Origin: Psilocybe cubensis
Lineage: Eukaryota
Direction: 5' to 3'
Assembly: GCA_017499595.2 (NCBI GenBank)
Contig: CM039002.1
Span: 2,790,001 to 2,854,000 of the forward strand
Length of the DNA stretch: 64,000 nt
Positions within the stretch are counted from its first letter, which is position 1; each line of letters begins with the position of its first letter. The notes under the pieces were generated by a model. That model made no database searches. It saw only the letters and a list, made by a program, of their open reading frames with translations, and was not told where the DNA came from. The position numbers and the translations under genes were made by a program. Shown here one piece after another: positions 6,115-58,171 of this stretch.

Positions 6115-6214
6115 NNNNNNNNNNNNNNNNNNNNNNNNNNNNNNNNNNNNNNNNNNNNNNNNNNNNNNNNNNNNNNNNNNNNNNNNNNNNNNNNNNNNNN
6201 NNNNNNNNNNNNNN
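6115..6214. other. Assembly gap (100 N)
   Basis: Run of 100 N, a placeholder for a gap of unknown size; it truncates the 3' end of the minus-strand cargo gene. Confidence 0.99.
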
Positions 6215-8102: not shown

Positions 8103-11100
8103 ATGGTTTCCATCAACTCTGCTTATGCTCCTGCTTCTCCCAAGCCTACATATGCCGATGTGGTTGCTGGTGATCGCTCGCCCTCTGCTGAATACAAGTA
8201 AGCCGTTCCATGTTATTCTATGTACAGTTTATGATTTTAAACGTTGTGCGTTGTAACAGACATCGTCCTGCAAAAGGCATTCGCAACGTCATAATCCACG
8301 TCAAACCCGACAACAAAGAAGATTCTTTTTCTGTTGCCACTGACTCTGATGACGGACCGTTAGACAGCGTCGCCTCTCGCATTGCTGCCGCAAAGGTCGT
8401 CAAACCGGGGAACAAGACTGTTGCGTACGTGTATCCCATACTATCTTACCCTGTGTCTTCAATCACGCACGTCGTTTACATGCGTTCCTTCCGTTTTCTT
8501 ATCTCTGTATTGCAGCGGATCAGATGCGTTGGACAATTTTGTTAGGAAGACCAGGTCAACAAGTGGCTTGTATGATTTTAGCTGCACATTCCGCACTTTT
8601 TTTCTTTTGTTTTGACTACTTTATTGTCGTTATAGGAAACGCGATATCGAAGATGCTGCGCTCGTTTGTTCCGATGAGGAGTTGCCGTTAGTGAAATTGC
8701 AATCTGATAACCCTTATGTTATGCTGATATTTTGGTTTTGTTATATATTTACCTCAGAGCCCGAATTTCCCCTCCGAAGAAGAGTCGTACATCCGTCAGC
8801 GCGAACGTTGATGCGACTGTCAATCACGTATCTTACTCGAGTGATTCTTCGGTCGAAGTCATTCGAGTCGTCGATAATTCGTAAGTTTTACTGCTTGTAT
8901 CAAATCTCGCCATTATTTCGTTCTGCTTAATACCGTTGGATACTCTGAACAGAGCCAACGCCCGATATCAGAAGGGTATTAGTGATGCCATATTAGTCGA
9001 TGATTCATCCGCGGATGAAATGGTCTCTGTTCATCCTACCAGCGGGTATGTTTATCATTTACATCTTTTATGTTATTATGTCATACGTTCTCACATCCGC
9101 GTATTACAATTCGTGCTCCTGTCAGAGCAAAACCGAATAAACAGAAAGGCAAGAAGCCACAGAAGACAATGCCCCAAACGGTCCGTATCAAACAAGAGCC
9201 TGGCATTGTCATAAAGCAAGAAGCATCTGCTCGTCCCACGTCCGTATTGCCCTCTGAAGTTATGGTTAAGAAAGAGTCTGTCGATGTTCATATCCCTCTT
9301 GCACCGGATAACGTTGCGTCCACCCCCACAAAGAAAGACAAAGGAAAATCATCCGTTTCAAAGAAGGGCTCTGTTGGGATTCGTAGATCCGCTCGGCGTT
9401 CGGAAGCTGCGATCGAGCGAGTACCGTTCTCTTTTATTCCACATTGCGATTGACTGACGTCCTGCTCTTAGTCTGTCGGTGTCTCCGCTGAAGATTGGGT
9501 CTGAAATTTCTGGATCTGCTGTTTTGTCTCCACCCATTACTTTGCAGGGTGATGCTGATTCTGATATCAACCCCTTCTTGCCGTCACCTGAAGTCATTTT
9601 GGGCACCAAGTATGTGTATGCTCTAAAAGTCTACGTGAGCATCACTTAACTTGATTTACAGAATTCCAGGAAAAGGCAAATCCATTCGCATTGTTCTTCC
9701 CAGCGGTCCAATCGATCTTCACGAAGATGAAGCTATGATGTTTGCGTCAGTAATGTTCATTTGTGGTGTTTTTCTTTTATCACTTCTTAATCGGGTTTGA
9801 TCAGGCACGCGGTCAGAGAGAGTCGAATGCATCAGACCACTTATCCATCTTCCAATGCTCTCCCCAGCGGTCCTTCCTCTAGCAAGTTGCTCAAAGCGCT
9901 CGATGATGCGTATGAAAAGTACAGTGAAGCAGATGCTCTTAAAACCGAACATTCGACTTTGGACCCCCCTGTTCAATTTAAGGCGTCTGTAATAAGGTAA
10001 ATATCCGTCATGCCAATATATGTGATCGTCTTTATCTACCTTTATTCAACAGTGCCAAATCTATCGACGCGCATTCTGATGTGGTTATGGCCAGTCTTTC
10101 TGAACAGCCAAAAACTCGACAAGTGCAGTTTCAATCTTCTTTGACAGCTGTTCCAATCAATGCCGCTGTTGAAGCTCCCCCTACACCTGTCACTCCAGTT
10201 CGAGTTCCCCGCAAGTTCAAGGATGTTGTGCCTGCCGGTCCTGTGAACAAAACTCCCAGTCTTGGATTGAACGGGCCGGCTCTGATGGAGGATACCATGC
10301 GCTTCTCGGTCAAGTAAGTTAACGTACCCATATGTCATCTTCAATCTGTTGTCTGACTTGATTTGTGTCTGACCTTAAGACATCTGCCGAAGAAATGCGA
10401 AGTTACGAAGACAGATTTACAAGATAGTCTTTTAGAAAGCACTTACGTTGACCTTCCCAATCTTCAGTAAGTTTTTACCTTCTAAGATAATCGATGTTTT
10501 GTTTTGACTATTTCAAGGCATGGTATTCTCAAGCAATGGAACTCGCCTAATGTCATGGCACCAGTCGACTGTGTTTCTTTTTCTCTCTGCGGTGAGAATT
10601 TCCCTGAGATGAATTTTGAGTGAGTTTCGTAAAGCCTTTGCTATACTTTACTTAATGATGCGTATTGCTTACTCTCTCTACTATGTTATATAGAAACGCT
10701 TATGACGCTGTGACTTTTGTAAGGAACAAGAACTTTATCAATCCTTCGCGGGTTTCGCCTCTGGACGTCAGCATCCTGTATATGGGAAACGATCGTAAGC
10801 GTGCCACTTTGCAGTGCAACTCGGTGCCTGCTATCTGCCTGAGTGCAATTCTCACCCGCGATTCGTATCTATTGGAGCCGATATCCAAAGGACTGTGTAA
10901 CAAATTTTTGTCTGGTCACATGATGCACCAGGAGTGGGAACGCTTCGCTGGATTTGCTTGCATGGCGTTCGGACATCAGGTTATGGTAGCCTCTATCCGT
11001 GATAAGGCAATCACCTTTGGCACTATGGGAGTTAAATGTCAGTGGGCACATATGCTTACTTTTTTTTTTTTTTCTTTTTGTACTCACTCAGACACTCACT

Positions 11101-11570
11101 CAAATAGCGGAGCGGGAATCAATCTCTCCTTCAAAACCTCCTAGGACACCCGGCATACTTTCTGGACAGAAAGATGCCAAACTCCAAGGAGGAAGCCGAA
11201 AAGCACTTAAATCAAGCACCAGGTTCAAGACCATGATGGATTCAACCGACACTAGTAAGTTATCAACATTGTATGTGCTTCAAACCACTGACAATGTCAT
11301 ATATTAGTTCCCATATATGATTCACGTAACCATGCCTTCAATTTCAACACTGACCTCGACCGGTTAGACGAATTGCTACCTAGATGGCGTCGCGGAGAGA
11401 TTCCACCTAACTCCTTTGTTATGGTGGCGTACACTATGACTCAATACGAGAAGGAACGGTCATTTCATCTGTGTACCAACATACAGTATGCCGTTGTGTT
11501 CGGTACGGAACACGATACCAGCGACATAGAGGCAGAACAGGAGTCCTTTGCAGGTTTTGATGAAGACTGA
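8103..11570 (+). CDS. Element-borne multi-exon protein: disordered N-terminus plus C-terminal putative OB-fold/SSB-like domain with acidic tail
   Basis: Many short GT-AG introns link the ORF pieces; conserved-looking C-terminal blocks NFINPSRVSP, QEWERFAGFACMAFG, VPIYDSRNHAFNFNTDLDRLDELLPRWRRGEIPPNSFVMVAYTMTQY...LCTNIQYAVVFG; ends EHDTSDIEAEQESFAGFDED*. Confidence 0.65.
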
Positions 11571-11959
11571 ATATTTCATTAAACCTAATGTCTTTTAATA
11601 CACATAGTTATGGTATTATTTACATTCTCCTTGCTATCTGTTGTTATTTTTTGGTATCATATACGTCGCGTAGTCTATTACTTCAATGTTTTTGTTCTTT
11701 CTTCGTGTCATTTGTACTCTGCTTCCTGTATCTTTGAATATCCAGTTAGTATTCTGTCTTATCAACTGCTTCGTATCATATTCTACTTGTCTTCCGTACA
11801 AATTTCTCCCGATATAATAATACATACATATTATCATGGCATTACAGTTGGACATATGCTTTTCCTTTGCGTGTCCCCTCTGCCAAAATTTAAGCGCCCG
11901 TTGTCAATAATCGTACGCTACACAGAGTTACCCGGTGTTACCTGTTGTCAGTGTCTACT

Positions 11960-11967
11960 TATATAAA
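11960..11967 (+). promoter_or_regulatory. Putative TATA box of the RepHel gene
   Basis: TATATAAA about 140 nt upstream of the inferred ATG at 12103, followed by a pyrimidine-rich tract. Confidence 0.4.
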
Positions 11968-12102
11968 TCGAGGGTCCTCGATGCGATTCCTTTAATTATT
12001 CCTACACATTCCTCCCCCCCCCCCTTGATCGATCTCACACTCATATCCATCAGACTAGTGAACATATCTATTTACCTTGAAACTTACATTACTCTTTTAT
12101 AT

Positions 12103-15100
12103 ATGCTCGCCGCATCACTTCATTTCTACGCTCTTTTTATTTTAGTTTCTGGTTGGGGTGAGTTATCTTCTCCTTATGTGTACTGTGTATGATCTGACAT
12201 TTGTCGCTATTTTGTAGGAATCCTATGTGGCCACATACAATGTTGCATTAATGTACACTCCTTGAACGCATCCAATTATGCTGGTGATTCTCGAACAATA
12301 TCGATGCTTAGTAGTTGTATAGCTGTCAATCAACAGTTGTTTAAAACAAATAATTGGTCAATAGACTTTTGCTTACCCTGTGGGGAATTTCCAACCTACG
12401 ATGTTCGATTTCCTGGCAATAATCTATTGCGTAGTCGTACATGTACTAGATCTAGCAGCGTATCAAGTGGGCACAAAGTTTGTAGAGTGCGTCTTACTGT
12501 AGTATTAGTTCATGTTATGCATTGCTTGAATCGTACTACTACGTCCGCTTCTGAGATACCCGTCAAACAGTCCCACTCGTATGGAAATGTGCGTTTGTTG
12601 CACTCGCAATTTCGCCGCTTCATATATATTGATTGTCATTCAATGTCGGCTTATTTGTGGTTAAGATTCACGCCTGCAACGTATACACGTAGAGTTTCTA
12701 TTTTAGTATCTCTGTTGCTCCAACGTAATCATCTCAGGAAGTGGGAATATAATAGGTGCCTGGTAGCCATTTTGCCAAGATGCGCCTTGCATCAATTCAC
12801 GCTCGACAGACATTACACGCAACCTCGTCTTTGGTCAGAGAAATATCCCTTCATTAATATAGTATCGAAGGGCGTTCTAATGTATCCGTTTCAGTGTTCC
12901 TGGTTATTCGGTCTCAACTATTTCCACTACATCTCATTTACTGCTAATGTTTCTGAATGCTCATACTATCATCCTTCCGATGTCTTGCAAGGCGGAGGTG
13001 GCGGTGTTTCAAAGGTTGTCAGCTCAGAGATTTTGCGATACCGTGTGGTACAAGATACGGGATGTGCCTCCGTTCAAGCTAAAACTAAATACAGATTTGT
13101 GAAGTACCTTGCTACAGACGCTCACATTTCAACTTCCATTGACAATATATCTGATTTAATAGTTGCTAGGTTCTCTCTCTTTGACACTGCTAGTTGGCTG
13201 TCTGTTTCTGAAATTAGGTCTATTGCAAGTTTACATGGAGTGTACGGCATCAATTCAACCACAAATAGAGGCAATGCCATTGAACTTTTGCGTGATCATG
13301 TGTGCGGAACTTGCCTTCGTAATGTCTGTATTTTTGAACGTGTGGTATCAGTGTCAGATAGAAAAATTAAGAGCAATTCATCTTCTTGTAATCCAGATCG
13401 GCAGTTTGAACTTACAGACAGTGCTGTAAATTTTTCTCGCTTCGTTTCATCTGCTTTAATAGAAAGTCATATTGTACCCTATAGTGGCACAGCATCGTTT
13501 AATTATAGTGATACATACAAGTTCGTTAGGTATATGCCGTACATACGTGATTTAGAGTCATTTCTCTCTGCCGAAGCGTCCGCACCCCACAAACGCCGTC
13601 TAGTTCTTTGTCGATTTTCTATACAAAGTGCAACCAAATGGCTCACTTCAAGCGAGCTTCGGGATGTACTGAAAGAACACGGTATTACATCATTTAATTC
13701 CAAGACCAAAAAATCTGCTCTGATAAAATTAACAGATGGTCATGAATGTGGTATATGTTCCACTCATTTATATATCTTTGAGGCAATACCTAGTACAGTC
13801 AATTCAGAAGAGTCAATCATGCATAATCGTAACCAAAATGTTCTACATAAACGAGCATCTCGAGAACGTCAGAGGCAGGCAGGCGCAGAATCTGCTAATT
13901 CCGATGTTGACATGCTCAACGGTGATGCTTTTGTATCCACATCAGACTCTGACCACACTTCAAACGACCATGTGTTTCCGCCACAACCACCGTCAAAGCT
14001 TCTGATAGAGGAAATCATCAATGGATTTTGCGCTGATTCATCTGCATCTCTACTGGAGGAAGCAGGCTGCATGGTCTGCGGTCTGCTGCAGCCTTTGCAT
14101 AATTTAACTCACTTGTCTATGTTTGATCATCCCCTTGACATACTCGCAGTTGAGGGAGCTACCCGTGTAGAGAGATTACATCCTGACGACCCGGTGAAGG
14201 ACATCCCGGGCCCTGTGATCGATCCTGCATGTAACCATGTATGCGATACTTGCTCTGCTGCGTTGAAAAAAGGTCATGTGCCGAGACATTCGCTTGCAAA
14301 TCATTTGTGGTTAGGTAAAATACCTTCTCAGCTGCAAGATCTTTCGTTTGCAGAGCGCATGATGATTGCTCGCATTCGGCATAATCGCTGTCTGGTCAGA
14401 GTTTCCTCTGGGCGGGCTAAAATGACAGCAAATGTCATCATGTACTCTAATCCAACGCTGAAAGTGTATCATGAATTACCTCCTTCAAAGCCAGAACTTG
14501 ACGAGGTACTTGCCTTTATATTTACAGGACCAACCCAACCCACGGAAGAAGAGTTCAAGCGTAGTCCAATGCTAGTGCGTCGCAATAAGGTCGCAGATGC
14601 TCTGGAATGGTTGAAACTTAACCATAAGGATTATATTGATCTTGAAATATCCAAGAAAAATCTCCAGTCTTACCCGCTGATAGGTGTCCCCGTAGCTGTA
14701 GACTACAGACAGCGCAACGGTACTAATCGTATGGAGTCTACAATGAGTCTACACGACGAAGGCGAAGATGAAGGAACTGTAGACGGACCTTGTCCGTTTA
14801 CTGTCCATGGCTTGAGTGGAACAGACTATGGCAATATGTCCATACAAGCTTTGAAGGCAAAAGCCTTGCAACACATAGAAAATGAAGGCAAAATGCTAGC
14901 TATTGGGCATGATCCAAAACCGCAGTCTATGTACGATAATCCTCAGGCCTATCCGCAGATGTTCCCTTGGCTATTTCCTTACGGTTATGGTGGAATAGGT
15001 CAGCATTGTCATAAGCGTAAACTTTCAGAGTCAGAACATAAGCGAATACTGCTTATGCACCATGATAAGCGTTTCCAGCGCGACCTTTATTTTCCTATTA

Positions 15101-18100
15101 TTGCATTCAATCACGAGCAACTGAAAGGTGGCGTTACTGGTAGCTTTCTTGTTGCAAAACGCCGTAATTTTGATGCGATATCTAAAAGATTGCTCTCTAT
15201 AGACAAAACGGTTCTTCAAGACATTTCCTCTCGTCTTGTAAATGGGGACCATGTATCACCTGAAACAGACAGTGAGAAAGACTGTTACAAACTTTTAGAT
15301 GATCTTGACCACGTTGGAGGATATGTTAAAGGGTCAATCACGTCTAAAAAGTATATGCGCAATGAGATATGGTCTTTGCTTTCTTTCAAAGGTTGCCCAA
15401 TATGGTTTATAACCTTGTCACCTGCCGATAACAGACATCCTATATCAATATATTATGCCAAAGAACAGCTGACCTTTACACCAGACATATTACCTTCTTC
15501 TGAAAGGAATAGACTGGTTGCACAGAATCCCGTATCGGCTGCCCGTTTTTTTCATCTCATAATTGAATTGTTTATTAAACACGTGCTAGGCGTCGGATCC
15601 AATATTCATCGAGGTTTGTATGGTAAAACTTCAGCGTACTATGGTACGGTAGAACAGCAGGGAAGACTCACCTTACATTTGCATATGTTACTATGGATTG
15701 AGAATTGCTTGTCTCCACAGCAAATCCGTGACCGTATTATGAACAACGACTCTGCATTTCAGGCGAGCCTTCTATCATATTTGGAAGGCTGTCATCAAGG
15801 CGAATTTCTTACAGGAAACATGCAGACTGTTAAAGACCGCGTGCCACATATTTACGACAAAGAAATTGATGGACTTCATTCAATTATACAAGAGGATGAC
15901 GAGGCTGTAAATTCCAGTTACGCAGATCCGACTCTAACACTCCCTATACCGGTAGAACATGCTTGTCAAGATTCCAATGGTCCGGACCACTGCACATCAT
16001 GCATTTCTAATGCTGAATGGTGGGACAATTACGAAACTACAGTCGATGATATCATATTGAAGTCCAATGTGCACAGATGCACTGTTTCATACGGTCAGCA
16101 AATTGATGACCCTGACGGATCAAAAGGTATAAAAAATATGCCTAAGGGCCCGAAAGGTTGCCTGGATTGGAATGGAAATTGTAAAGCACGATTTCCGCGA
16201 AGGCTGTACGAACAGTCTCAAGTCGATCACGTCGACGGTCACATATTTTTGAAAAAGTTGGAAGCGATGTTAAATACCTTTACTCTTCCGCTGTCGTACC
16301 TCACAAGAAGTAATACCGACGTGACATGTCTGTTGTCGGGTACTTCGATAAAAGCAATAATATATTATATATCAGACTATATTAGCAAACCCGCATTGAA
16401 AACGTATCAGATATTTACCTCTATGTATGACGTGTTTGAACGTGAAGAAAAAAAAGTTAAAGACGATGTCAAGATTGAAGGTAAAGACGCAGGCAGAAGG
16501 TTGATGCTTAAAATTGTCAACTCTCTGTCTTCTAAGATGGAGATAGGTTCTCCGATGGCCTCCTTGTATTTATTGGGCAACCCTGATCATTACACTGATC
16601 ATACCTTTGTACCTTTTTGGTGGAGAAGTTTTGTAAGTGACGCAAGGAGCAGTCATAAATCCGGTATCACTGATGACCAAGCCGCCCACCTACCTACCGT
16701 AGAGGATCTAGAAAATGCTGAAGATGAAGAACAGAAAGTTATATTAGCTCGACATGACGGTCATTATGTAGGTTCTAGTAATGTAGATGATTATAAATAC
16801 CGCCCAGTCACTCAAGAAGACATGTCTCTATTCGACTGGATTAGATCTTATGAGCGCCGTAAGCTCACTAAAAATGAAATGGAGCGTTTGCGTAGTGAAA
16901 CACTCACCTTCGAAGATGATCATGCGTCCGACATACGTGAAGGCGGGGGGATGGAAGATTTCATTGATGCATGTCTTGGTATACCTGCAGATGATGATTC
17001 TGATCAACGTGTTAAATATGACGGTGTGCGAAAAAATATTAAAATAAACAAAAGAAGTTTTGAACGTTTCACTGAGGAGCACCCTCTTTATTCCACTCAC
17101 GTAGTCAAATGTGACTCATCCCGAGCGCACAATATTGTCCCCAATTTTCTAGGCGGTCCCCTTCCACGGCGCGACAAAGGCGACAGAGAGTATTATTGTT
17201 GCAGTATGCTGACCTTGTTCAAACCTTGGAGGTCTGGGTTAGATTTGAAATCATTGCATCAGACTTGGGAACATGCATTCACCATTTACGCTTTTTCCGA
17301 CCGACAGTTGAAACTAATGGATAACTTTAATCTGCGATATGAATGTTTAGACGACAGAGACGATTTTCACGCACAGTTAAGAAGGAAAGACGGAGAACAA
17401 CAAGATGTTTACACGGATGAACTCTATCCTGATGGTTGCGGTCTCGACGATCAATACAACGACTTTGTCGGCCTTGAATTCGGTGAAGATCATTTAGATT
17501 ATGAAGAGATTGGTGAGGCATACCGCAGAGAGGTGTTGTTAAAGCGAGAAGTAGATGGCATCATACAATCTGCAGGATTGTTTTCTAACGCCTCTAGCGA
17601 TGTTACATGTCAAGAAGTCAGCATGTTCAGGCCTGCTGAATACAAGACGCATACGAGCTGGGCATCTCTAATAAAAGCTGAAAAAATTAGACTGTTTAAA
17701 CAGAAGTTGTCCGGTTACGTGCCTTCAGATCCCTCAGATGATATAACAAACATTCATATTTCCAACGAAGAGTCTACTAATGACGTCAAAGTAGTTTCTT
17801 CGGATTATCTGCTCAGGTCGTACAAGGCAAAGCAAATGGAACATAATGTGTTAGTAGATTCTACAGTCGCCGATTTCACCTTGAATACGGAACAGGAAAG
17901 GGCTTTCCGTATTGTTGCCAATCACGCTAGTTTGCTGTCGCCTGGTCAGCTGAGGATGCATCTCGGTGGCATGGGCGGTACTGGCAAAAGTCAAGTGATC
18001 AAATCTATCATTCATATGTTTGAGTCGAGAGGCGAATCTCACCGATTTGTGGTTCTCGCACCCACAGGTACCGCTGCTGCACTCCTCAACGGATCTACTT

Positions 18101-20619
18101 ATCACAGTGTATTAGGAATACGGTCCAAGTCGGATCGTGGTCAAGACTTTTCAAAAAACGAAGTCGCAGTAATAAATGACGTACGAGCTCGATTAAAGGG
18201 TGTCAAGTATATCTTTATTGATGAAATATCTATGCTGTCGTCGAGGGATTTATATGCCATTAGTAGACGTCTGTCACAAGTGTTTAACGACGATACACTG
18301 TTCGGAGGTATATCAATGATCTTAGCTGGTGACTTCGCTCAGCTACCGCCGGTAGGTAATCTCCCCTTTTATAGTCCTTCCATTAAACATACGCAAGACG
18401 CTCGCATGAAGGTGTCCGAGCAAGAAGCTACTCTAGGCAAGATATTCTGGCACCAATTCACGACTGTCGTTATTCTAAAACAAAACATGAGACAAAAAAC
18501 GCAGACTGAGGAAGACGCAAAGTTGCGCACTGCACTTGAAAACATGCGGTATGCCGCCTGTACAGACGCTGATATATCGTTCCTCAAGTCAAGGTTAGCT
18601 TCTAAACTGACGACTATTGAAGGTAAACCTATATTGACTGACCCTGCTTTTCGCAACGTATCTGTTATCACTGCGTGGAATAATCAAAAGGATAGGTTCA
18701 ATGAGCAGGGCATCGCAAGATACGCTAAAGAGAGCGGACGTACATTGCATCATTTTTTCTCTGTCGATAGTCTGGGTACACAAGAAGGAGAAACTCGCAG
18801 GCCTCGCGGACGACCATCAGGATCGTCTAAAGCAACCAAACAGACAAAGATGTCCCAGCGTCTTCAGGAAGCCCTATGGGGTCGCAGCGCCTGTTCTAGC
18901 GAACAAGTGCCAGCAAAACTTTCTCTGTGCGTAGGTCTGCCAGTTATGATACGGCATAACGACGCCACAGAGTTGTGTATCACTAAAGGACAGGAGGCTG
19001 TCGTCGTAGGATGGGAATCTTCTGTTGGTGCGTTTGGTAGACCTGTACTTGATACGCTGTTCGTGGAATTAATCAGACCGCCGAACCCTGTATCATTAGC
19101 TGACTTGCCTGTTAATGTTGTTCCACTTACGCGAACGTCGTCTCGAGTAACATGTACTCTCAAGTCTGGCACAAAAATCAATGTAAACCGCCAGCAGGTA
19201 TTAGTGCTGCCCAATTTTGCCATGACCGATTATTCGTCTCAAGGTAAGACGCGAGATTATAACTTGATACATTTAGATCATTGTAAGGATCATTCGTCTT
19301 ATTACACCTGTGTATCTAGAAGTTCGAACGCCAGTGGTACCATCTTACTCGGTAGATTCGATGCGTCTAAGATTACAAAGGGTATTAGTGGGCACCTGCG
19401 CCAGGAATTCCGTGAACTCAATATATTAGATCATATCACCACCATGAAATACAATGGACAGCTTCCAGACGGCGTGTTGCATGGATTAAGGAATCCGACA
19501 ATTCGGTCTTTCATGCTTCTCGACGTATCGCAATCCATTGGTACAGACTGGCATCCTACCTTGGCAGTCTCTTCATCAAAGCAGCTTATCAGAACTCCGG
19601 AAAAGGACGGCACCTGGTCTCTCAACAGTGTTAAGGCAATTGTCACCGACAGGGCAAAAGATAAGCGCAATAAGCGCCAACCAATTCGCTCAGACTGTAT
19701 AGGACCGAGGAAACGAATGTTGCTAAGCACACCCTCCGAGTTTGCGGTCCTACCTGTAGGTACAAAGTGGGACGCGGACAACTACAGTTGCAGTTACGAC
19801 TCCATCTTTACCGTGTTATATAACCTATGGATAAGTGCACCTGAGATGTGGACCAATAGATTCAGTGATTTGACACCGTTATTAGACAGACTCAGCGGAC
19901 AATTCGCACTTGTGCAGAATGGATCAATTTCTCTAGAGAGCGCACGAAACGACGTCAGAAACGATATGCACTCACGCAGCCCGCTTGATTTTCCTATGGG
20001 TCCAAATATGACATACATTGACAGAGTTATGACCGCTGTGATGGGCCAGCGATCTTCTGGAATGTCTGTTCTCGTGTGCAGTAAATGCGGCTACAATGAC
20101 CAAAGACCCGTAATGCGACTAGGCGAATATATAAGTGTGGCACGCACTGGCGTTTTCCACGACGACTCCCAGGAGGTGTCTTCTATTTCAGACAGTTTAG
20201 GTTTTAACCTGAGCGATGCTCAACGATTGAGTTCGAAGAATTGCCCTTCGTGTGCACAAAATCAGCATATCGTATATATGTCGCTATGCCATAAGGTTGA
20301 ACGATTACCTTACATTATGACAGTGGATATATGCTCGCCACGGTTTGCTATAAACCCTGATATTATGTTCAAATCGGATAGTTTCAACGTAGAGTATAAG
20401 CTTACTGGGGTTGTCTACGGCGGGCAACATCATTTTGTTTCTCGGTATGTTGACCTGCAAGGGGACGTGTGGTTCCACGACGGCATTACTACTGGAAATA
20501 GATGCGTAAAGGAGGGTAATGTTCATGACCTTGTTAATGATGTATCTCAATGGCTACGCATTTCCGTAAATGGGGGAAACTTGAAACATGCATTGTATGC
20601 TATTTACGCGAGGGAATAA
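12103..20619 (+). CDS. Helitron RepHel protein (DUF6570-like + HUH Rep + Pif1 helicase + C-terminal USP-like peptidase); exon 1 12103-12157, intron 12158-12217, exon 2 12218-20619
   Basis: 8.4-kb stop-free ORF. Rep motifs PIWFITLSPAD, YYGTVEQQGRLTLHLHMLLW (HUH) and YYISDYISK; Pif1 motifs GMGGTGKS, LAPTGTAA, IFIDEISM, GDFAQLPPV, QNMRQ, FAMTDYSSQGKT, YTCVSR; DUF6570-like LANHLWLGKIP..LQDLSFAE and VRRNKVADALEWLKLNH; C-terminal NYSCSYDS and HHFVSRY..WFHDG. Confidence 0.92.
13015..13790 (+). repeat. Internal ~140-aa domain duplication in RepHel (helix-extended-helix-like segment plus H-x-C-x2-C)
   Basis: Copy 1 KYRFVKY...ARFSL..TASWLSVSEIRSIASLHGV..INS...LLRDHVCGTCLRNVCIFE; copy 2 TYKFVRY...CRFSI..ATKWLTSSELRDVLKEHGI..FNS...LTDGHECGICSTHLYIFE. 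Confidence 0.75.
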
Positions 20620-21221
20620 GATGAAAATTTATCCAAAGTGTTTTATGGTTATGGAGGCCTCAGTTGATACATGCTCAGATAACAACTGTTTATATTCATA
20701 TCAGTATGGTATTTATCGTTCGATAGTGTCGCAGCGTATCAGTCTATTAGACTCAGCTGTATAATCTGAACCCATAGACTACATTGCATCGAGCATCGTG
20801 TGGTTGAAAGGACGATCCAAAAGCGTGGGAGAATGTCGTACATGTTCCTTTAATACCTTCGCATCAAAGGGATATCGGAACTTGCCGAAATTTCGTTCAC
20901 CGCTCTGTTTAAGAACTGTGCCTATCCGACTTGAACACCTTTTTCGACGTTGTCATTTGCTGCCACATCGTACCAGTATTCGTATCTTCAAGGCTAATAT
21001 ACAATATTTGTTAGGCTGTAGGTTATATTACGATATATGATAGAAATATTGATGGTATTCTAAATGTGTTCAAATCGATAGTTCATTTTGAAGAACACCT
21101 TAAACCTGTCAGCGACTGCTTTGCAGAGTCGTTGCTTTAGTATGTCTATATCTACTCACGCAATGCTATACATATAAACGGCAAATTTTTAATTTTTTTT
21201 CTGCTTCTTTTTAGACTACCT

Positions 21222-23925
21222 ATGGCTCCCAACCCATTCTTGGACTTAGAAGCGAATGTCGATCACGGAGATTCAGAGGATGGTTCAGCCGAATCTGACG
21301 AATTTGGTGCGCATAATATTTCGTTTTACTCAGTCTCATGTCATTCCAACATACGAGATAAACCAAATTTACTCGCAGAATGCTTCATCGACGACGGAAC
21401 TCAATCCCATGAAGATTGTGACGGTTCATCATCTGTGGCAATGGACAAACCCATTCCTGTTACAAAGAGAGACCGACTGGCCCTCGTAATTCAACAAATT
21501 GAAGAGAGAACACGTGGTAGATCTCACTCACTGCCCGCCTCTGATATGTACCGGGGTGTGGAACCATTGTATTCAAACGCTGACAATCCTACTGTTTTGT
21601 CACCGCACGGAAACACTGATTCGGGCTTCGAAAATCTGCCCACGGACTATCCTACATGGAGGATTGGATGTAAAGTAAGTTTAATACCATCGAATTAAAT
21701 TTGTGTGTTGCCAACCATATCGATGAACAATACGTAAGGTCGGATACGAAGAAATCGCGGTCGCTTCTTTACTCAAAAACTCGCGCCGAGAACATCATAT
21801 TCGGTCCGCGTTTTCACGCAGTTCTGTACATGGATACATATACTTGGAATGTTTGATGGATCAGCCTATGATTGACCTTATCAAAAGATCGCCCGGCATC
21901 ATCGTAAAAACTACGGACGTGCTCCTGAGTCCGATCGATAAGAATGAGGCTCAGCAACTGTTGTACATGGGAGGGGACATTACGAACCTATCGGTCGGAA
22001 AATGGCTCAAGGTTAAACGAGGTGTATACAAAGGCGATGTAGGCTTTGTCGTTTCGAAAGGATCGTGGGGGGTGTCAATGCTTATGATCCCCCGTTACGA
22101 GTACGTGTCCACCAAAACGAAGTCATCTCGTAAACGGAAGACATACACTGCGGTGCCCGCGCCTAAGCTATTCGATCCGACAGGCCTTCGTAACTCTCAT
22201 TTATACATAGAATCAGGCAGAGCATCTGTCTATCGCGTAGGTGATCTGATCTTTGAGCATGGTTTGGCCCGGGTGGACTACGATCCCAGACACGTTGCCT
22301 CATGTCGTGAAGGTCTGAGTTACGTGACGTATACATCATTTTGTATGAGTGGGCATCCCGCACTCCATCACGCGCCGATACCAAAGCCAAAGGAATGGAT
22401 CATGCGAACCATGGAATGGGTGGTAATGAGATCTACAGGTTGGCTCGGAGTCATTGCGCAAGCCGACGACGATAATATGGTCGATGTCGATATATACAAC
22501 AAAGGCTGCGACCATGACGAAACTGGTCAACATTACAACGAAACTGAAATCCACAGAGTTGATACAACTACGACCCAGCTGTTGACAACAATACGCACCG
22601 TATGGAGTGACATCTTAAAACATTTCGAAATAGGGGATTACGTAGGGGTTGACGCTGGCGTTAATGCTGGACGATCGGGTTGGGTCGTGGACATCAAGGG
22701 AGATGAAATACAACTAATCGATAAGCAAGGCACTACAAAAGACCAGCAAATCAATACAGCCGACTCGATGTTGGAGGCAAGTATTTGTCATTTAACCGTA
22801 TATATACTCTGGCTCATGCATACATCTCAGATTATATATATGCACAGGAATTTCGTTTCTCTGGGAGATGCGACGACATGTCAGCCTTCATCGCTCCTCG
22901 CGCTTATCCCAACATCACACACGACCCGATATCATCGTTGGAAAGGTGTAACTGTGATAGTGAGCAAGGTACATCATACGTTCAAAGGCTTAATCGGCAT
23001 TGTCGCCGAGGTACTACAGTCCGTAAGCCCAAGAACAGGTCAACCTGAGTTGCGTTTAGTTGTAGAGCCGACTCGATATGATCCGTCGAATCCCTTCAAG
23101 AAAATTGTTTTGAACAGAGACGACGTACTGGAATACAGGTAAGCGTATTTCATTTACCGATTTGTACTCGCGCTCACGGCTTGTAGTACCTTTGAGCCTC
23201 TAAGCCTGTCGAAGACGTATGATTCGAACGCTGTCCACCAGTCTCGTAACTTCGCCAACCCATCGATCATAATAACCACAGGAACTGAAAGCGCTGACAG
23301 TGGCAGACATACACCATTGCCTGATACTATTGAGGACACCTCGCCTGCGTGGGATCCATCTGACCATTCAGAAGATTTAACAAGCATTAGCATAGGAACC
23401 GTCGTCGTAAATTCAAGCGACGGTACCAACGTTGCATCTTTAACCACTCCTTGTAATCTTTTGTTGAAACGAGAGCTGATTGGAGTTCCTTTGACGGTGG
23501 AAGAGGCAACCGTCGATGGACACGTTTCTCCGTTGTTTGTAATCGTTCAGGAGGACGTGGATGGGCAGCTGTGCATGATGCGATTTACACCCAATTCGAA
23601 GCGGACGTTACGGATTGAATCGACCCATATAAAGCCCAAACATCCTACCATCAAGCACGACTTTGGGTTATTAGCCATCATTGAAGGAGAACACGCGGGT
23701 AAATGCGTCAGACGTGTGCATTCTAGGAAGGATACCAATGGCGTGGTATTGGTGGTCAAACAAGTACTGCCCACTGATCGAGGAGCTGATCAAATAGTGG
23801 ATGGCGAGCTATTGACGCCAACCGAAAATTGTTGTGTGGCCTATGAAACTCAAAAGAGAAAGAATGCTAATCGGAATCAGATGAGACACGAACACGATAT
23901 TTACATTAGTACTCATTTGCCATAA
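21222..23925 (+). CDS. Spt5-like protein (acidic N-terminus, NGN domain, multiple KOW motifs), element-borne, about 5 exons
   Basis: NPFLDLEANVD...FIDD acidic N-terminus; TWRIGCK/VGYEEIAV...IRSAFSRSSVHGYIYLE (NGN); KOW-like GKWLKVKRGVYKGDVGFV, GDYVGVDAGVNAGRSGWVVDI, TFKGLIGIV, IIEGEHAGK; TSPAWDP resembles an Spt5 C-terminal repeat unit. Confidence 0.78.
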
Positions 23926-24099
23926 TTGTTTACTGTATGTCATATGTGTTGTATGCTCTACAATGTAACCAATACAGACATCCTCATCAACGAGTTATAA
24001 AATATATATATAGCATGCAACTATCTATATAACACTGAACATTCATGTATCGACTGCGCTAATTGTGTGGATTGATACCATGCACTGGCATACGGTTTA

Positions 24100-25441
24100 C
24101 TAGTCGTCGAACAAACTTTCCACAGAATTATTGGGCGCCCTAAACTGTATGTCCTTGCCTGAATCTTTGTCACTGTATATCTTGGAAGCGTTGCGATCCA
24201 CTGCCTCTGCTATATTTGCCAATGTTTCGTGATTTACCGCATCGGTCATCGGTTGGAGACGATTGTGTTGAATAACATCATGTCCTGCAGCGGTGGTTGG
24301 TTGGAGACGATTTAGTTGAATGACGTCTTGCCCCGCAACTGGAAGGCGGGTGCGACGACCTTTGTTGCTTGGAGGTCCCGTGATGACGGGCACATTGATG
24401 GCCAATAAGGACACGAGGGCCTGAGGCAGAATGAAGCAATGTTGTAGATGATGGTGTAGATAAAGAACTCACAGTAGCGCTTAATGCATACACAACTAAC
24501 ATTGGATATTGTTGAGCTAACTTGACGTAAATCCCGAACCACACGGCGCTGGACAGCATTATGAAAACGCTGCTGTTGTAACCTAACGCGAACGGCACGC
24601 CAACGGTGCGTCAGTCTGAAAAAGGACACGCGGGTTTCTACTATTAGTATAGTCCAGCTTCGTCGAATAATCAAGATATCAGCAATGAGTTCAGCTATAT
24701 AGCAGTCAGCAATGGGCAGTCGATTAGATGAAGTGTGACTTACCTATAAGAGAAAACAACAGCAGAATGTAAGGTGGTTGGCATGGACACACAGTATCCG
24801 ACTTGCAATCGGTGTTGACCTTGCACACAAATATGGCGAAAGTGGAGAAGATAATGCCGATTGCGATGAATATGACAGCGTACAGCCAGCCCCATAATAC
24901 ACGGAGTTGTTTGGCCTTGTGCAGTCGATTCGGTGATAGCACTATACTGGCGCGGGAGACCCTGGACAGCGCATTCGTAGTAATAAGTGGCCATGCTTGT
25001 TGTGGAAAGTGACTACGCACCACAAAACTATAAAGAACGCAAATAGTTCGACTCGGTAGGAAACAGGAAGGGCGGTAGGTGTGTCGATGGCTATACATAG
25101 CAACCCCATGATATATGTCAATCAATGTAAAATAAAAAAAGACTGGCTACAAAAAGAAAAAAAAAAAAAAAAAAAGTATCACAACGCACCCAATTTAAAC
25201 AATGTGAGGGCAATGACAAAGTCTGCAACCACAGCCACAGCCGCCAGCCCATCGTCGTACCAACACCGTTTGTCGCACCGCCTGATAATGAGCCTGAAGA
25301 CGACCAAAAAAATGGCCAAGGCATGGCTGAAAGCCAATCCGTATGCTGCGACTGTAAAATAAAGAGGAAACAAATAAGTTCGTTAGTTTGTTGTTAGAAA
25401 AGGTTTACGAAGAATGCTGCCTTACCTATATTTACGTCCAT
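24100..25441 (-). CDS. Pth11-like (fungal rhodopsin-domain) multi-pass membrane protein, element-borne, possibly truncated
   Basis: MDVNI/VAAYGLAFSHALAIFLVVFRLIIRRCDKRCWYDDGLAAVAVVADFVIAL (R-L..R....W.DD motif), SRVSRASIVLS, further hydrophobic helices WLYAVIFIAIGIIFSTFAIFVC and VFIMLSSAVWFGIYV; exons bounded by GT-AG. Confidence 0.6.
24251..24340. repeat. Two-copy 48-nt tandem repeat in the C-terminal tail of the Pth11-like gene
   Basis: GGTTGGAGACGATT recurs at 24251 and 24299; encodes QDVIQLNRLQP / HDVIQHNRLQP on the minus strand. Confidence 0.7.
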
Positions 25442-25679
25442 TCTTTGTTCGCTGGTTTTGAGGGGCCGCAGATGCAGGTGATGGTAAGAAGTTGGCGGGA
25501 TACAAATTACGTGGCAAATGGAAAATGGGAAGGCCACCATATATGGACTTTCGTCGCTGGTCACGGATTGTTCGGCATTCAGAGCGCGGGCTCCAAACGG
25601 AAATCGGACAAGCGAACATTGGCTGATAATGCTGTTTACGGGCTACTACAACATCGAATCAGCGACTCAGACGCTGTAG

Positions 25680-26568
25680 ACCATGAGAAGCCATGATTGA
25701 ATGAAAGCCGAGACAGATATCACGCCCTCTTGTAGGCGATGGTGAGTAAATTTCAAACATAATCAGGATATAAAAGCTTACGATGTCATACGCGCATGAC
25801 TCTGGACATGATAAACTTTAACTTTACACCAGGCGACCTACCTGAGATGTTGTCCAATATACAACGGCATTCTGGTATATGGTGTCCGTTGCTAGGAGTT
25901 GAGATAAGTGTCATAATCGAGAGTATCGCCAGGTGTCGAAGACTCACCCGAATCGCCCAGGTCATCGATACGAAGGCCATCTTGATACCGACATGAACAG
26001 ACTCAGACTCTGCATCGACCTCCAAACGAATATTTATCCGAACGAACCACTACAAGCCATATCAGTCACACTCGATGCGGTGCAGGTGCTACGGAAACGC
26101 TTTGTTTGATATAGGTCATCTTGAATACTCGTTCAGCTCGGATAGCCTGTTCGAAACAAACCTACGACGTAGGTATGGTTTATTCTTAAGCGCATTTATA
26201 TGCTGGTGTATGGTTCATAGGTGTGGCATAATGATTTTGGTCCATTGAAGTGCCCTGTTGCGCGCAATTGTATTGCCTGACGTTACACCGCAGATACAAA
26301 GACCCCAATAAATGTCCATAGTCAAGAGGCGGACTATCATGTTGAAGTACTGACACAGAGGTAAGTCTTTTCACGTTATTTGTATCACCCTCTCTAGACT
26401 TACTTGGGATTCCTTCACGAACACGTAAAAAAAAAAAAACTGACAACGTACGAAGCCAACTAATAACATCTGCAGATTTTGCATTAAGCCACCGCATTTA
26501 GACATTTCAAATATGGGTACGTACCATGGAATACAACTTTGATCTAGGAATTTCAACTTCTCCAACAT
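25680..26568 (-). CDS. Hypothetical multi-exon cargo gene (structure uncertain)
   Basis: ATG at 26568 (MLEKLKFLDQ...), short ORF pieces separated by intron-like segments with poly-T tracts; no recognisable motif; 3' end approximate. Confidence 0.3.
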
Positions 26569-26750: not shown

Positions 26751-28562
26751 TTAGACGACCCATCCATTTTCAGCATGTCTCGGACGAAGGTCTATGAACA
26801 CATTGAAACTCACGACAGTACGCTCGACGTGCCACATTGCAAACACCGACTCCCGTTTAAGCAGTTTTTTACGGAAACTGGATGGGTTGAAGAGTAGGCG
26901 GTGTACAAAGAAACTTTGATCCATCTCTGTTTGGGTGATTTGAGGTTGCACGGTTGCTGAATTCCAAACCAATACACGCGCTAACGTCCGTCGGACCGCA
27001 TTTTCTATGCTATATGTCGGTGCGTCTATTGACGTTGTCCCAGTTAGGTGTGCACCGACAATGTATGAGTAAGTGTGTTGCGGACTGGTTGATCGAACCC
27101 GGATCTCTATTTGTATGTGAGTGCCATGCTATGTTGACAATATAGGGTGAAACTCACGAGCGCCTAGCAGACGGCAATTAATCTCACAGTCTCGCACCTA
27201 TCCGTTCGTTTGTCGTAAAGACGTTGACCAAGGTGGATGGATGGTGCAAAGAGACACGAGCACTCAAATGAAAGTATATTTCAGAGGATACATTGACACT
27301 CACGGTAACACAGGCATCACGGTACATTCTTCCATCCTCTTCATACGGTTACGAGCTGTTGATCAACTATGGTTGGAGAAGTTGGAGGATGAGGGAGCGG
27401 GCGAATCTTTTGTGGTGAAGAGTATCATTGGATGGAGTGTACTGAAGGTGCGAGGTAGAAGGACTGCGTGCTGATGAGGGCACTGTTGCCTGTTGAAGAC
27501 GCACATTCCTCTAGTGCACACAATTGTACGGCCATTAGCAAATGTGAAACAAAGGTAACACCTGTAAGCAGTTCTGAGTAACGGAAGTGGACAGTAGGTA
27601 TTTTGGTAGATCACATGCCTGTTCAGTCCGCTTCCGGGGTTCTGTTGTGTGCATTGCGTACACTCCTCTATGTCTCCTATATTCCATTCACATCCTGCTA
27701 TGATCTTCTTCCGTACACTCCGTGGTTTCTGACGCAATGCAACATGAAGTCGTTTAGTTTTATGCCAAAGTATTTGAGAGTCAACTGACTTATAAATGCA
27801 GTGTGATCAACAATTTTCAAAGTGCCCTCGACGGTCTGGGCGGTACGCCTCTCTATCAATACAAAAGAATCCTGACAGTAAGTAGCACCCAAACAACTTT
27901 CCCCCTCTTAGATTGTTGCGCCACTGATAACCTCAAGCAACTTTTAGGGTGGAAACCATGCGATACCAGTCACTTTTCTTCATTTCCGTCAACGGTCTAC
28001 TGCGGTCAAACTTGTATCGAGTGGTATGAGACACTATAACATGACCGAATCCCCTCGATGCACTACTGAGAGAATACGGTACAACGGGTATAATCGATAT
28101 TAGTTGTCTGGAATACATTGATTCAGGTGAGAGACCGATTGCACGGTGAAAGTCGATGTATACTCACACTCCTGACTGTAGACGAGCTTGGACTGAGATC
28201 GAACGAACGAAAATAAACGGACCCTCACCGAAGCCGGTTGACAGCACGTTGGCTGTCTATCCTTCAGAACATATACTGTACTACGAATTAACAGAAAGTT
28301 AATGAGTTGAACGGGCAACGGGAGGATTGTTGCACGCCTGAACGGAATGTGCGTTTGCATTCACTGAAGGCGTCAAAACGAAGTTTGTTCTACGTGCTAA
28401 CCTCGGCCCATATAATATACAGCTTATCTCAACATCTGTTGACACAGGTCTGACAAAATCATGCTTTCGAACATCCACCCAGTTTAACAGATATGGGGAA
28501 AATATCGTGGCGAGGTGAATTGCTCCTCGCTGTCTTGTTGATTGAAACGCCTCCACGTTAAC
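26751..28562 (-). CDS. Hypothetical cargo gene(s) or fragments (structure uncertain)
   Basis: Several minus-strand ORF segments with plausible splice sites (e.g. poly-T CAAG acceptor near 28563); no family recognised. Confidence 0.25.
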
Positions 28563-34355: not shown

Positions 34356-37300
34356 CTACATTGTCTATTGTCCAAACAGTGTCCAAGAAGTCCGAAATGT
34401 CCAAGATAAAGTACAGAAATCAGAAAAGTACCTGCAATTTCCTAGAGGACGGCCCAGTTCTTCCATCACTCGTATTCCTGAAAACACCAAAGCTGGGTTG
34501 GGGGACGTCGAAGTTCTCGATGAAGCCCGGAGACAGCAATTGGGAGGGAGGAGCAGTGGAAGAACGCGAACGCTTAGGAAAGACAGAGACGGCCTTTCGC
34601 GTGATCTTGTTGAAATACCGTCGAAGTCGATTGGTCGATTTTGCAGCAGGGAGAGCAGGAACATTGTCTCCCTGAGATGAAGTACCCGAGTTGTCCCTGG
34701 TATCAGGAACGATATCACCAGTTGGATCCTCATTGGATCCGTTTCCATCTTCGTTGGATCCCTTCCTGTTGGTGAAGAGGGGACCGGGAGATACCCTGCT
34801 GGAAGAGCGCAGCCGCCTAAGCACAGAGCCGCCAGACCATTTGCGAGATTCCGATGGTTGGCGTGCAAGAAGGAGCTTTGAGTGGGGAGTAGGCGTGCGA
34901 GTCCGAATGCGATGAGCAGACGATGTCGGGGAAGGCGTCCGCTGTTCAGGGATGTCGTAAAGCCTGCGCTTAGCGAACCTGGGAACCTTGAAGAACAGAC
35001 GGGGCGTCGTCGGGGAACCGGAAGGTTGGGGGGAGACGATGACAAGGTCGGTATCATCGGAACCAGAGTTTTGAAGATCGTCAGCGGCAGGGGATGGAGC
35101 AGATGCCAGCTCAGCGAGGTTTTGGCACTCTTCCGCGGTCGACATAGTGGATACCGAGGTTACAAGCATTCCAGATGGTCGCCCAATTCCGAGCGCTTCG
35201 AGGTCCATGCTTTTGCTGGGCGCAAGACCCCCGGAAGAAGAAGAAGGAATGGCGACAACACGATCCGTAGAAGCGGAGGAAGAAATCCGAGCGGAATGAT
35301 CTGTAGGAGGGAGAGCACTTTCGCAGCCAAGAACATAGCTATCAGAATGGAAGTACTCAGCCGATAGTGAACAAGGACTCCTAGGATCGTTCTCCGGAGT
35401 CAAAACAAACGCCGTGAGTCCAAGGTTGCTGACGTCTGAATTTTGCGCATTGTACGAATACGAGGAAGCCGGTGACCCATCATTAGCTCGGGGCCTGGCA
35501 AGATGGTGGGTGGATCGTAAAGACCGGGCAAGTTGGTGAAGAGGAGACACTCGGGAAAGGAATGAAGGATGTTCAGGTGAGCTAAGTACAGTGTCCATGA
35601 GAGGTGGCTCATGTCCAGAGGGTTTGGGAAGAGTCCCAAGTAAGTCCGATGTAGTATCCCGAGAAACGTTGCCAGAAAATGGTTCAGTAGCAGTTTCGAA
35701 GCCATGAGAAAGCGAGTCAGAAGGATGATTAAGAGATAAAGCAGCAATAGTGGAAGTGATAGGATGAGTTACAGCAGATGTGTTGGCAATAGTAGATGCC
35801 AGGTCAGTAGGGTCGAGAGTGGAAGCAGCAGCAGAAGATGATACAGGCGCAGAACTCATGAAGGCAGAAGAACCGGAAGGAGAAGAACGGAAGAAACGAG
35901 AAAGTCGCTTGCTTGAGTTCAAGAGCAATTGACGACGCGAGGATACCAAGTCCAGAGAAGGCCGTTCGAGGGAGGTTGTAGATCCAGAAGGAGCACCATG
36001 TGGCTCGCTTACTACATTACCTGCCCCAGCCTCGAGCGGATTGGCCATGAAAGATGCGCGCAAGTTCGGCCCCGAGGAACAAGACTCTGTACGATTCTGG
36101 CTGCGAAGATGCAATTCAGAGGTAGCAGCCACTGGCATAACCACTGACTCATCATCCGCAATGTAAGCCATATCGACAGCTACATAGCAGGACATACACA
36201 GCATCAGCTCAACTCGATATGATGAAAAAGCAAAGTGAGAAAACTTACAAGACGAAGACGATTGCCCAGATTCCGAAGACTGACGGTGGGGAACATTATG
36301 ATCTCCATTCGGACCCTCGAGAACTTTTTGTTGTTCTCGACGGCCACGAAGGCTCACGGACATACGTGACTGCATGGCCTGCAAGCAAGAAAGAACACCC
36401 ATGGGCTCAATTTCGGCAGTGCATTGACCAGCAGACATATCGACATCTGGTGATAAAAGATGAATGTTTGGGAGTATGAAAGAAGTGAATGGAAGGTGAC
36501 GTACGAGGAGAAGAATGTTCAGCTTGGCGAATGCCCACCGCAGGCTTTTTGGAGTCGCCAGCGACACCTTTGGGTTCGTCTTCAAGTCTTGTAATCGAGG
36601 AAGAGGGTCGAACTGCGCCATCCGTCAAAGAGCCCAACCCAAGTCCGACCAGCGGGGAGAGGGTGGATGGTGAGGGGCTCTTGGCAACATTTTTGACCTG
36701 CAAGAAATCCGGGCGGCGTGTCAGGAATTGATAAATCGCGTTGGGGTACTCATATTGGTTCTCTTCTTCCGGCGTCAACTCATCATAGCAATTGGACGCA
36801 ATAATCATGAACTGTTGGTAGCTGTGGCTCTCGGGCATGGTGGAGTCGTTGAAAGAATGATCATAAAAAGAAGGATAGCTGTTAATGTCCATTGGCTAGA
36901 ATCACAGTCAGAGATATTGATAAGAGGAAAAGACCAAGTACTCACGGGTATAGTTTGCTGCTGTTGAGCGTTAGTAACTGGAAGTCCGTGTGCTACATAG
37001 TGTCCGTGATTGGGTTGGGGAAGGTGTTGAGGCCTGGGATCAGTGTTCGTAGCAATTTCAAGGCGGATGATAGCAGCCATATCGAGATTCTCTCCAGTCA
37101 ATGCAACGGGGAAAGAACGATGTTCACGACGAGTAGCGAACATCAACCTAGAGACGGGGGCGGGGGAAGAAACGACAGGTACGTTTCCTTGAGCGTATGA
37201 CTCGTTGAAGATGGCGGGGGACAAGATGGGACTGGTGTCCTGTTGGGCAGGGGAAAGGAGAGACGTAGAGATCGACGCAGAAGACTCAAAGGAGGGACCA

Positions 37301-57650: not shown

Positions 57651-57750
57651 GCCCGCCTAGCTCAATCGGATAGAGCGTCAGACTCTTACGGCGGGTTTCT
57701 TCCTTCCCTTTGACATCTGAAGGCTGCGAGTTCGACCCTCGCGGTGGGCT
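57651..57750 (+). tRNA. tRNA-Lys(CTT) with canonical intron
   Basis: GCCCGCC acceptor stem pairing with GGTGGGC, D arm TAGCTCAATCGGATAGAGC, anticodon loop CT-CTT-A followed by an intron, T arm GCGAGTTCGACCCTCGC. Confidence 0.93.
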
Positions 57751-58072: not shown

Positions 58073-58171
58073 GCCCGCCTAGCTCAATCGGATAGAGCGT
58101 CAGACTCTTAAAGGCGGTGTCATCCCTCATTGGGAATCTGAAGGCTGCGAGTTCGACCCTCGCGGTGGGCT
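58073..58171 (+). tRNA. tRNA-Lys(CTT) with canonical intron, second copy
   Basis: Exons identical to the 57651 copy; different intron sequence; downstream T-runs. Confidence 0.93.

Follow-up and report, generated by a model that had tools for sequence, protein, structure and literature searches.

What is a gene that resembles a transcription elongation factor doing directly behind the RepHel gene of a Helitron transposon? The locus lies in a 64,000-nucleotide (nt) stretch of Psilocybe cubensis DNA (GenBank assembly GCA_017499595.2, contig CM039002.1, positions 2,790,001 to 2,854,000 of the forward strand), the whole of which we call the window and whose first letter is position 1. To our knowledge, Spt5/NusG is the sole transcription factor conserved in all life, and eukaryotic Spt5 is normally a single essential gene. 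The gene considered here runs on the plus strand from an ATG at 21222 to a TAA at 23923-23925 and is a real, divergent paralogue of the NusG/Spt5 family with intact exons. Its family is multi-copy and includes identical copies, its relatives are intact and under purifying selection, and at other loci they occur with transposases and long inverted repeats. On balance, we lean towards a functional, fast-evolving paralogue of Spt5, the elongation factor of RNA polymerase II (Pol II), as one of a large family repeated in Agaricales whose members are passenger genes of several DNA transposon superfamilies.

The splice signals of the gene were read and checked against homologues. The resulting model has five exons separated by introns of 72, 64, 54 and 48 nt, and the spliced frame, free of internal stops, encodes 821 amino acids (aa). 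The start codon lies 602 nt behind the RepHel stop on the identical strand. An earlier note, made from the letters of this DNA alone, had described intact exons on the strand of RepHel about 600 nt behind it, and this description agrees with our measurements. The parts of the gene are listed below.

21222..21306, plus strand: exon 1, encoding the acidic N-terminus (MAPNPFLDLEANVDHGDSEDGSAESDEF); the intron that follows is also found in the public model P0001 and fits the family alignment.
21379..21674, plus strand: exon 2, with the FIDD motif, a linker and the start of NGN (DYPTWRIGCK).
21739..22776, plus strand: exon 3, with NGN (about 21739-21966), the KOW1-linker (about 21991-22458) and the next KOW (about 22540-22725).
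22777..22830, plus strand: putative GC-AG intron, the third, 54 nt long, in frame and stop-free.
22831..23138, plus strand: exon 4, with a conserved KOW (HRWKGVTVIVSKVHHTFKGLIGIVAEV ... RYDPSNPFKKIVLNRDDVLEY) aligned with 15 of 16 homologues; residues 405-465 of the structural model fold at high confidence.
23187..23925, plus strand: exon 5, with a disordered linker holding TSPAWDP (23338-23358), a tandem beta-barrel module like KOW6-KOW7 with a terminal helix (about 23455-23922), and the TAA.

Each exon of the public protein P0001, "Transcription elongation factor SPT5 [Psilocybe cubensis]", is matched exactly in the window. In both P0001 (744 aa) and a second model, P0153 (789 aa), the stretch 22831-23066 is skipped or frameshifted. 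When the spliced product is aligned with 16 homologues, this stretch proves to be a conserved KOW (HPW-G-x-V-I-x-K...KG...RYDP-x-x-PF...DYDDVVE). Homology supports the 54-nt GC-AG intron followed by an exon at 22831-23138, and both public models are mis-spliced at 22777-23138, losing a KOW that is conserved in the family. This bears on annotation, where such genes of P. cubensis are called "Transcription elongation factor SPT5" and carry wrong splice models. The third intron, whose donor is GC, keeps the reading frame, so it may be retained. No longer versions of the protein were found in a word-index protein search.

The product has the full domain order of an Spt5: an acidic N-terminus, NGN, the KOW1-linker, further KOWs, one unit like those of the Spt5 C-terminal repeat (CTR), and a tandem KOW. 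Its first 60 residues contain 17 D/E and 3 K/R. The sequences FLDLEA...FIDD and IRSAFSRSSVHGYIYLE and one TSPAWDP unit (23338-23358) are all present in the gene, and FLDxEA...FIDD motifs at an acidic N-terminus are common to the family. The TSPAWDP unit resembles the TPAW-type CTR nonamer of fission-yeast Spt5. Its Trp is invariant across 27 aligned relatives, and such units number one in the window gene and one or two in relatives, with no CTR array.

A Pfam search with the window piece recovered both Spt5-NGN (PF03439; E = 2.7e-4, 21.3 bits, cutoff 22.4) and KOW1_SPT5 (E = 1.5e-3, 19 bits, cutoff 22). In P0153, a public model of the same gene, NGN reaches 25.6 bits and is over its cutoff, and Pfam detects NGN in 9 of 13 long family members. 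A phmmer search of PDB sequences gave 17 matches at E<=1, of which 14 are Spt5 or plant SPT5L chains (best E = 1.4e-10) and the remaining three are FliM (E about 0.2).

Predicted structures agree. The contiguous reading 21739-23136, modelled by AlphaFold with a 144-sequence family alignment, has a mean predicted local distance difference test score (pLDDT) of 83.7; residues 365-398 of this read-through model fall below 50. In Foldseek, the model matches Spt5 chains in Pol II elongation complexes (E = 4e-17), and its best 31 rows are all Pol II elongation complexes or isolated Spt5 KOW domains, with TMt values of 0.79 to the KOW1-linker (4ytk) and 0.77 to KOW2-KOW3 (4ytl). The predicted NGN fold fits the Spt5 NGN inside Pol II complexes. 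The last exon is predicted to form two beta-barrels and a helix (residues 90-245; overall pLDDT 81.9), nearest to the Kin17 tandem SH3-like domain and to human DSIF KOW6-KOW7 (5ohq, TMt 0.66, E = 1.1e-3; a weaker match). Pfam, phmmer and Foldseek concur on the Spt5-like architecture that the earlier note had proposed from an acidic region, an NGN signature, several KOWs and one TSPAWDP unit; recovery of NGN and KOW by hidden Markov models, the failure of which was named there as a refutation, was obtained below the cutoffs on the window piece and, for NGN, over the cutoff in P0153.

The gene belongs to a large family. A HMMER search over 1.84 billion representative sequences returned 522 matches at E<=1e-3, 170 at E<=1e-10 and 49 at E<=1e-30. 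All of the organism-named matches that we looked up (20/20) come from Agaricales, in the genera Psilocybe, Panaeolus, Pholiota, Flammula, Cyclocybe, Hymenopellis and Dendrothele, and many named members sit on contigs of 3.6-16 kilobases (kb). A protein atlas holds several Basidiomycota clusters of 50-168 members each with KOW1_SPT5 and NGN. Family-specific motifs include WGVxVLLVPR, LFDP, FEHGL and PxPxEW. No relatives were found among the viral contigs scanned with the family alignment.

Within P. cubensis, at least 16 Spt5-like accessions in three subfamilies share one annotation, so the window gene is not the only Spt5-like gene of its genome; being the sole SPT5 was what the earlier note had listed as fatal to its proposal. 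An identical 744-aa product is encoded by four GenBank accessions on three contigs, unlike the single-copy state of canonical SPT5, and two partial models (P0002, P0152) stand beside these copies. The second subfamily (938-948 aa) comprises five accessions on five large contigs, and the third comprises five accessions. Identity among the subfamilies is about 30-35%, with end branches of more than one change per site. In a quick tree without an outgroup, the window gene pairs with a Psilocybe cyanescens protein rather than with the other P. cubensis subfamilies, and deep subfamilies are common to Psilocybe species. None of 13 long matches scanned carries a strong, complete canonical Spt5 Pfam array. 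Because Spt5 is universally conserved, we infer that P. cubensis has a separate canonical SPT5. The 90%-identity cluster of one P. cubensis Spt5-like protein (P0009) also lists bacterial PspC-domain proteins of 53-57 aa, probably a clustering artefact.

A locus scan of metagenomes with an 11-sequence alignment (A3) returned 50 loci, 33 of which contain an open NGN-containing exon of 257-532 codons. The ratio of nonsynonymous to synonymous substitution rates (dN/dS, Nei-Gojobori) was estimated for the 267 of 528 pairs with 0.05<dS<1.5; its median is 0.39 and its values span 0.27-0.60, the pairs being non-independent and including near-duplicate contigs. Every informative pair is well below 1, so these relatives are not neutrally decaying fragments, and the neutral decay that the earlier note had named as a refutation is not seen; the relatives are under purifying selection. 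These values bear on the possibility that the gene is a captured host fragment, functionless and decaying. In favour of such a fragment are the fast evolution seen in the 30-35% identity between subfamilies and in the long end branches, the partial models P0002 and P0152, and the lack of any transcript contig over the gene in three contig sets. Set against these are the full domain set in an open spliced frame, the retention of family-wide conserved motifs, a dN/dS of 0.27-0.60 in 267/267 informative pairs, and the confident prediction of both folds, that of the main model and that of the last exon. We regard decay as disfavoured and very improbable.

The surroundings of the metagenome genes indicate how the family spreads. 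At the DNA level these loci cross-hybridise with 70-92% identity, so few species may lie behind them, and their proteins are about 30% identical to that of the window gene, reflecting the habits of the family rather than the window copy. The following neighbours (Pfam) and duplications support a repeated family with DNA transposons around it.

L016 and L012: a Plavaka transposase as neighbour.
L028: KDZ and CxC2 as neighbours.
L023 and L019: Transposase_21 as neighbour, with or without DUF4218.
L002 4499-4888, L005 3250-4009, L012 7443-7838 and L016 13173-13795: a DUF6698 gene downstream on the same strand.
L016 8223-10019, L023 3292-4841, L027 4125-4633 and L028 4287-4795: head-to-head palindromes of 81-92% identity that duplicate the upstream region of the Spt5-like gene.

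The Spt5-like gene of L031/L032 lies, together with a 492-aa open reading frame (ORF), between inverted repeats that measure at least 967 nt and are 94.5% identical; this ORF is Transposase_21-like (atlas score 0.98; common motif IIL-x-x-NLP-x-x-R, BLASTP E = 0.002). One group of loci whose flanks differ has in common a unit of about 3.2 kb, made up of the gene and about 900 nt upstream. This unit has a recurrent palindromic left end, and several loci carry a head-to-head duplicate of the 5' region. Three further observations concern these loci. The DUF6698 gene, present in four independent loci, may be a second recurrent passenger gene; the palindrome of L016 also duplicates exon 1 of the Spt5-like gene; and the palindrome centre has a conserved motif, ...CGTCGGGCATCTCGGG on one side and CCCGAGATGCCCGACG... 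on the other, which is a candidate transposon end, foldback or bidirectional promoter.

Could these genes instead be a host family of expanded Spt5 paralogues, serving for example small-RNA or heterochromatin defence against transposons, which lies in transposon-rich regions and is not itself mobile cargo? Purifying selection and the deep subfamilies common to Psilocybe species (in the quick tree only) would suit such a family, as would the match to plant SPT5L (PDB 8hyj_W, 'RNA-directed DNA methylation 3', E = 1.6e-5), and we also count in its favour that the specialised eukaryotic Spt5 paralogues known to us all act in transposon silencing. The four accessions of identical copies and the long terminal inverted repeats that enclose gene and transposase-like ORF fit cargo better. 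The protein has three isolated GW/WG dipeptides in 821 aa and no repeat array of them, and members of the family are often on short contigs, as repeats are. We consider a host family distinctly unlikely, and keep to passenger genes of DNA transposons.

Which transposon would carry the window copy? The two features that precede the gene are as follows.

12193..20619, plus strand: RepHel ORF of 2808 codons from stop to stop, with HeH/LEM-like, DUF6570, Helitron_like_N (Rep) and PIF1 helicase domains, then about 450 residues without a family match.
20620..21221, plus strand: spacer of 602 nt, presumably the promoter and 5' untranslated region of the Spt5-like gene, with no Helitron-type 3' end in the scan.

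The Pfam matches of the first ORF (DUF6570, E = 1.3e-39; Helitron_like_N, 5.3e-33; PIF1, 5e-27; HeH, 1e-4) include DUF6570, Helitron_like_N and PIF1, and this combination identifies it as an intact Helitron RepHel. No other transposase was found by Pfam among 28 large ORFs of the window, and as RepHel is the only transposase-like gene found there, Helitron cargo is plausible at this locus. The remaining Pfam matches of the window are to otherwise ordinary genes (LYR, homogentisate dioxygenase, transketolase-like, carboxylesterase and C2H2), apart from a weak match to DUF6729. According to Castanera et al. 2014 (PMC4289320), RepHel of autonomous Agaricales Helitrons such as Pleurotus HELPO1 is followed by between one and four cap genes, which are expressed, and the layout of the Spt5-like gene, co-oriented and 602 nt behind RepHel, fits this arrangement. 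We regard the gene as most likely cargo of the window Helitron, though this is not established.

The same evidence can be read another way. The gene may belong to a different mobile unit, either a short self-contained repeat or a remnant of EnSpm, Plavaka or KDZ type, that stands beside the Helitron or was inserted near it. In the metagenomes, the partners of the gene are Plavaka, KDZ and Transposase_21, with RepHel in 0/50 loci; the 3.2-kb repeat unit with its recurring ends is found in loci of differing flanks; and the scan downstream of the window gene found no Helitron 3' end. Against such a unit, the window has no relatives of those transposases or of DUF6698: 20 neighbour ORFs of the metagenome loci (transposases, DUF6698 and others) gave no tblastn match in the 64 kb. 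There is also no inverted copy of the gene's 5' region in the window, and the palindromic end motif of the metagenome unit has two window matches, both about 20 kb from the gene, against 1.07 expected by chance. The spacing and orientation behind RepHel fit the cap-gene layout described in PMC4289320. A separate mobile unit is, in our view, unlikely, yet of the alternatives it deserves the most attention.

Several results weigh against passenger genes, and against a Helitron as the carrier in particular. A HelSearch-like scan of 20620-26000 for 3' ends gave two candidates against 2.5 expected from shuffled sequences, and the only better site, a hairpin with CTTG (stem 8) at 28510-28537, lies beyond the convergent gene and is a weak lead. 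NGN or KOW Pfam domains occur in 0 of the best 120 RepHel relatives. The window RepHel was found by tblastn (E<=1e-3) in 0/50 metagenome loci, at least 3 kb upstream of the match being present in 9/50 of them, and Pfam detected no Helitron or PIF1 domain in 113 neighbour ORFs of these loci. As all 50 lack RepHel, the family in general is not one of Helitron genes, and the proximity to RepHel genes that the earlier note had suggested scoring was seen in none of these loci. As for its view of the window gene as transposon-borne, a divergent and repeated paralogue among DNA transposons stands, while the scan for 3' ends brought out no Helitron terminus. As the shared unit in one locus group is only about 3.2 kb, the results suggest that the gene is able to spread with no fixed partner. 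That it was amplified jointly with RepHel is so far hypothetical. Searches did not locate a canonical SPT5 in P. cubensis, the top 150 matches all being family members without strong canonical arrays; the NGN and KOW1_SPT5 Pfam scores of the window piece are slightly under the curated cutoffs; and a median dN/dS of 0.39, from non-independent pairs with near-duplicate contigs among them, is relaxed.

Further observations concern RepHel and its surroundings. At its N-terminus (12193-13900), the frame already stands open some 250 codons before the first plausible Met. Two HeH/LEM (SAP-like) segments that resemble each other lie in it, and Pfam sees one of them at E 1e-4 to 1.4e-5. The C-terminal region of about 450 residues (19150-20616) has Cys...His motifs and CxxC pairs (CSYDSIF..., CSKCGY, CPSCAQ, HHFVSRYVD...WFHDG). 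Judged by eye, this Cys/His region resembles a USP-like cysteine protease, but it has no Pfam or PDB sequence match, and viral contigs scanned with it held no relatives. A Helitron 3' end proposed by eye at 24078-24103 (bulged hairpin and CTAG) failed the scan criteria. In the protein collection, the best RepHel relative has 56% identity, P. cubensis is represented by no RepHel that reaches 1544 aa, and an exact look-up of 10 single-exon neighbour ORFs of the window found none of them. An assembled DNA contig of run X1 is continuous over about 5416-25178; contig depth does not equate to a copy number.

What might a transposon gain from such a gene? From what is established about the domains of Spt5, NGN would dock the protein onto the Pol II clamp in the manner of Spt5, replacing host Spt5 on element transcripts, while nascent RNA and factors for capping or processing would be contacted by the KOWs and the single CTR-like unit. 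The outcome would be full-length, capped and stable transcripts of long element genes, or the shielding of these transcripts from co-transcriptional silencing. This mechanistic step (Pol II binding, with transcript promotion or a silencing shield) is a guess, and one that we would sooner expect to fail than to hold. A wider hypothesis, which we put forward tentatively and think somewhat improbable, is that Helitron, EnSpm/Transposase_21, Plavaka and KDZ transposons of Agaricomycetes share and exchange an Spt5 of their own, which would replace host Spt5 and guard their transcripts from premature termination or silencing, a eukaryotic parallel to the RfaH/ActX-type NusG paralogues.

One accessory gene distributed among several transposon superfamilies is a known phenomenon, as PMC12730594 describes a TET/JBP gene carried by KDZ, Plavaka, EnSpm and Helitron elements. 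In our literature search, which had supplements outside its scope, we came across no description of fungal Spt5 paralogues associated with transposons, and a term search of the main texts, as accessible, of PMC12730594, PMC5751038 and 10.1101/2024.12.17.628972 gave no mention of Spt5 or KOW. Hundreds of divergent, selected copies travelling with transposons would show that mobile elements can supply an elongation factor of their own. The family would also be a tractable system for template-specific Pol II elongation complexes and a way to study how fungal transposons escape or tune transcription-coupled silencing.

Elsewhere in the window, we made the following observations.

24100-25146, minus strand: convergent gene without a Pfam match, lying from about 175 nt past the Spt5-like stop, apparently multi-exon, with membrane-like hydrophobic segments and, at 24232-24327, a tandem duplication of 48 nt; it may belong to the host or be additional cargo.
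34400-38500, minus strand: run of large ORFs (734, 330 and 244 aa) without a Pfam match, with raised G+C (0.50) and a strong positive GC skew (0.13-0.22).
645-1829: ORF with a weak match to DUF6729 (E = 7.9e-4, below cutoff), 20 kb from the Spt5-like gene; DUF6729 occurs in repeated fungal genes.
57651-58189 and 62721-62842: tRNA-like repeats (GCCCGCCTAGCTCAATCGGATAGAGCGTCAGACTCTTA...), direct and inverted, spaced by about 0.4 kb and by 4.5-5 kb; they probably represent a small cluster of tRNA genes.

Among known systems, canonical Spt5 (DSIF/Spt4-Spt5) has the identical domain order and provides the best PDB sequence and fold matches. The window protein differs from it in belonging to a multi-copy family, in its length of 821 aa, in having one CTR-like unit instead of an array, in matching yeast or human Spt5 at only E about 1e-10, and in its family-specific motifs and transposon context. 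Plant SPT5L has a long GW/WG Argonaute-hook region, whereas the window protein has no such array. Like the window family, plant SPT5L/KTF1 (RDM3) and the Spt5m of Paramecium (cited in PMC13085455) are lineage-specific Spt5 paralogues tied to transposon biology; unlike it, they are single host genes that serve silencing, whereas the window family is repeated and adjoins transposases.

HELPO1 of Pleurotus ostreatus is likewise a Helitron of Agaricales, its RepHel followed by one to four genes that are expressed. In PMC4289320, capA, capA2, capB and capC have no recognisable domain, other cap genes have viral or nuclease domains and none is an Spt5. HELPO1.1 and the shorter HELPO1.2 copy total 6.6-7.2 kb according to the same paper, so that their cap genes must be far shorter than the 2.7-kb Spt5-like gene, and the ends of HELPO1 are defined while those of the window Helitron are not. 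The TET/JBP dioxygenase genes are also chromatin- or transcription-related accessory genes in many transposon lineages of Agaricomycetes and other fungi; they encode another protein with another activity, and the terms Spt5, KOW and elongation have no occurrence in the accessible text of PMC12730594.

The bacterial NusG paralogues RfaH, ActX and LoaP belong to another domain of life, and the ops-type recruitment site and fold switching are bacterial features, with no evidence of either in the window gene. RfaH, ActX, LoaP and similar proteins are encoded in horizontally acquired operons and plasmids. As element-encoded copies of an elongation factor that could favour the element that carries them, they offer the closest functional analogy to the gene described here.

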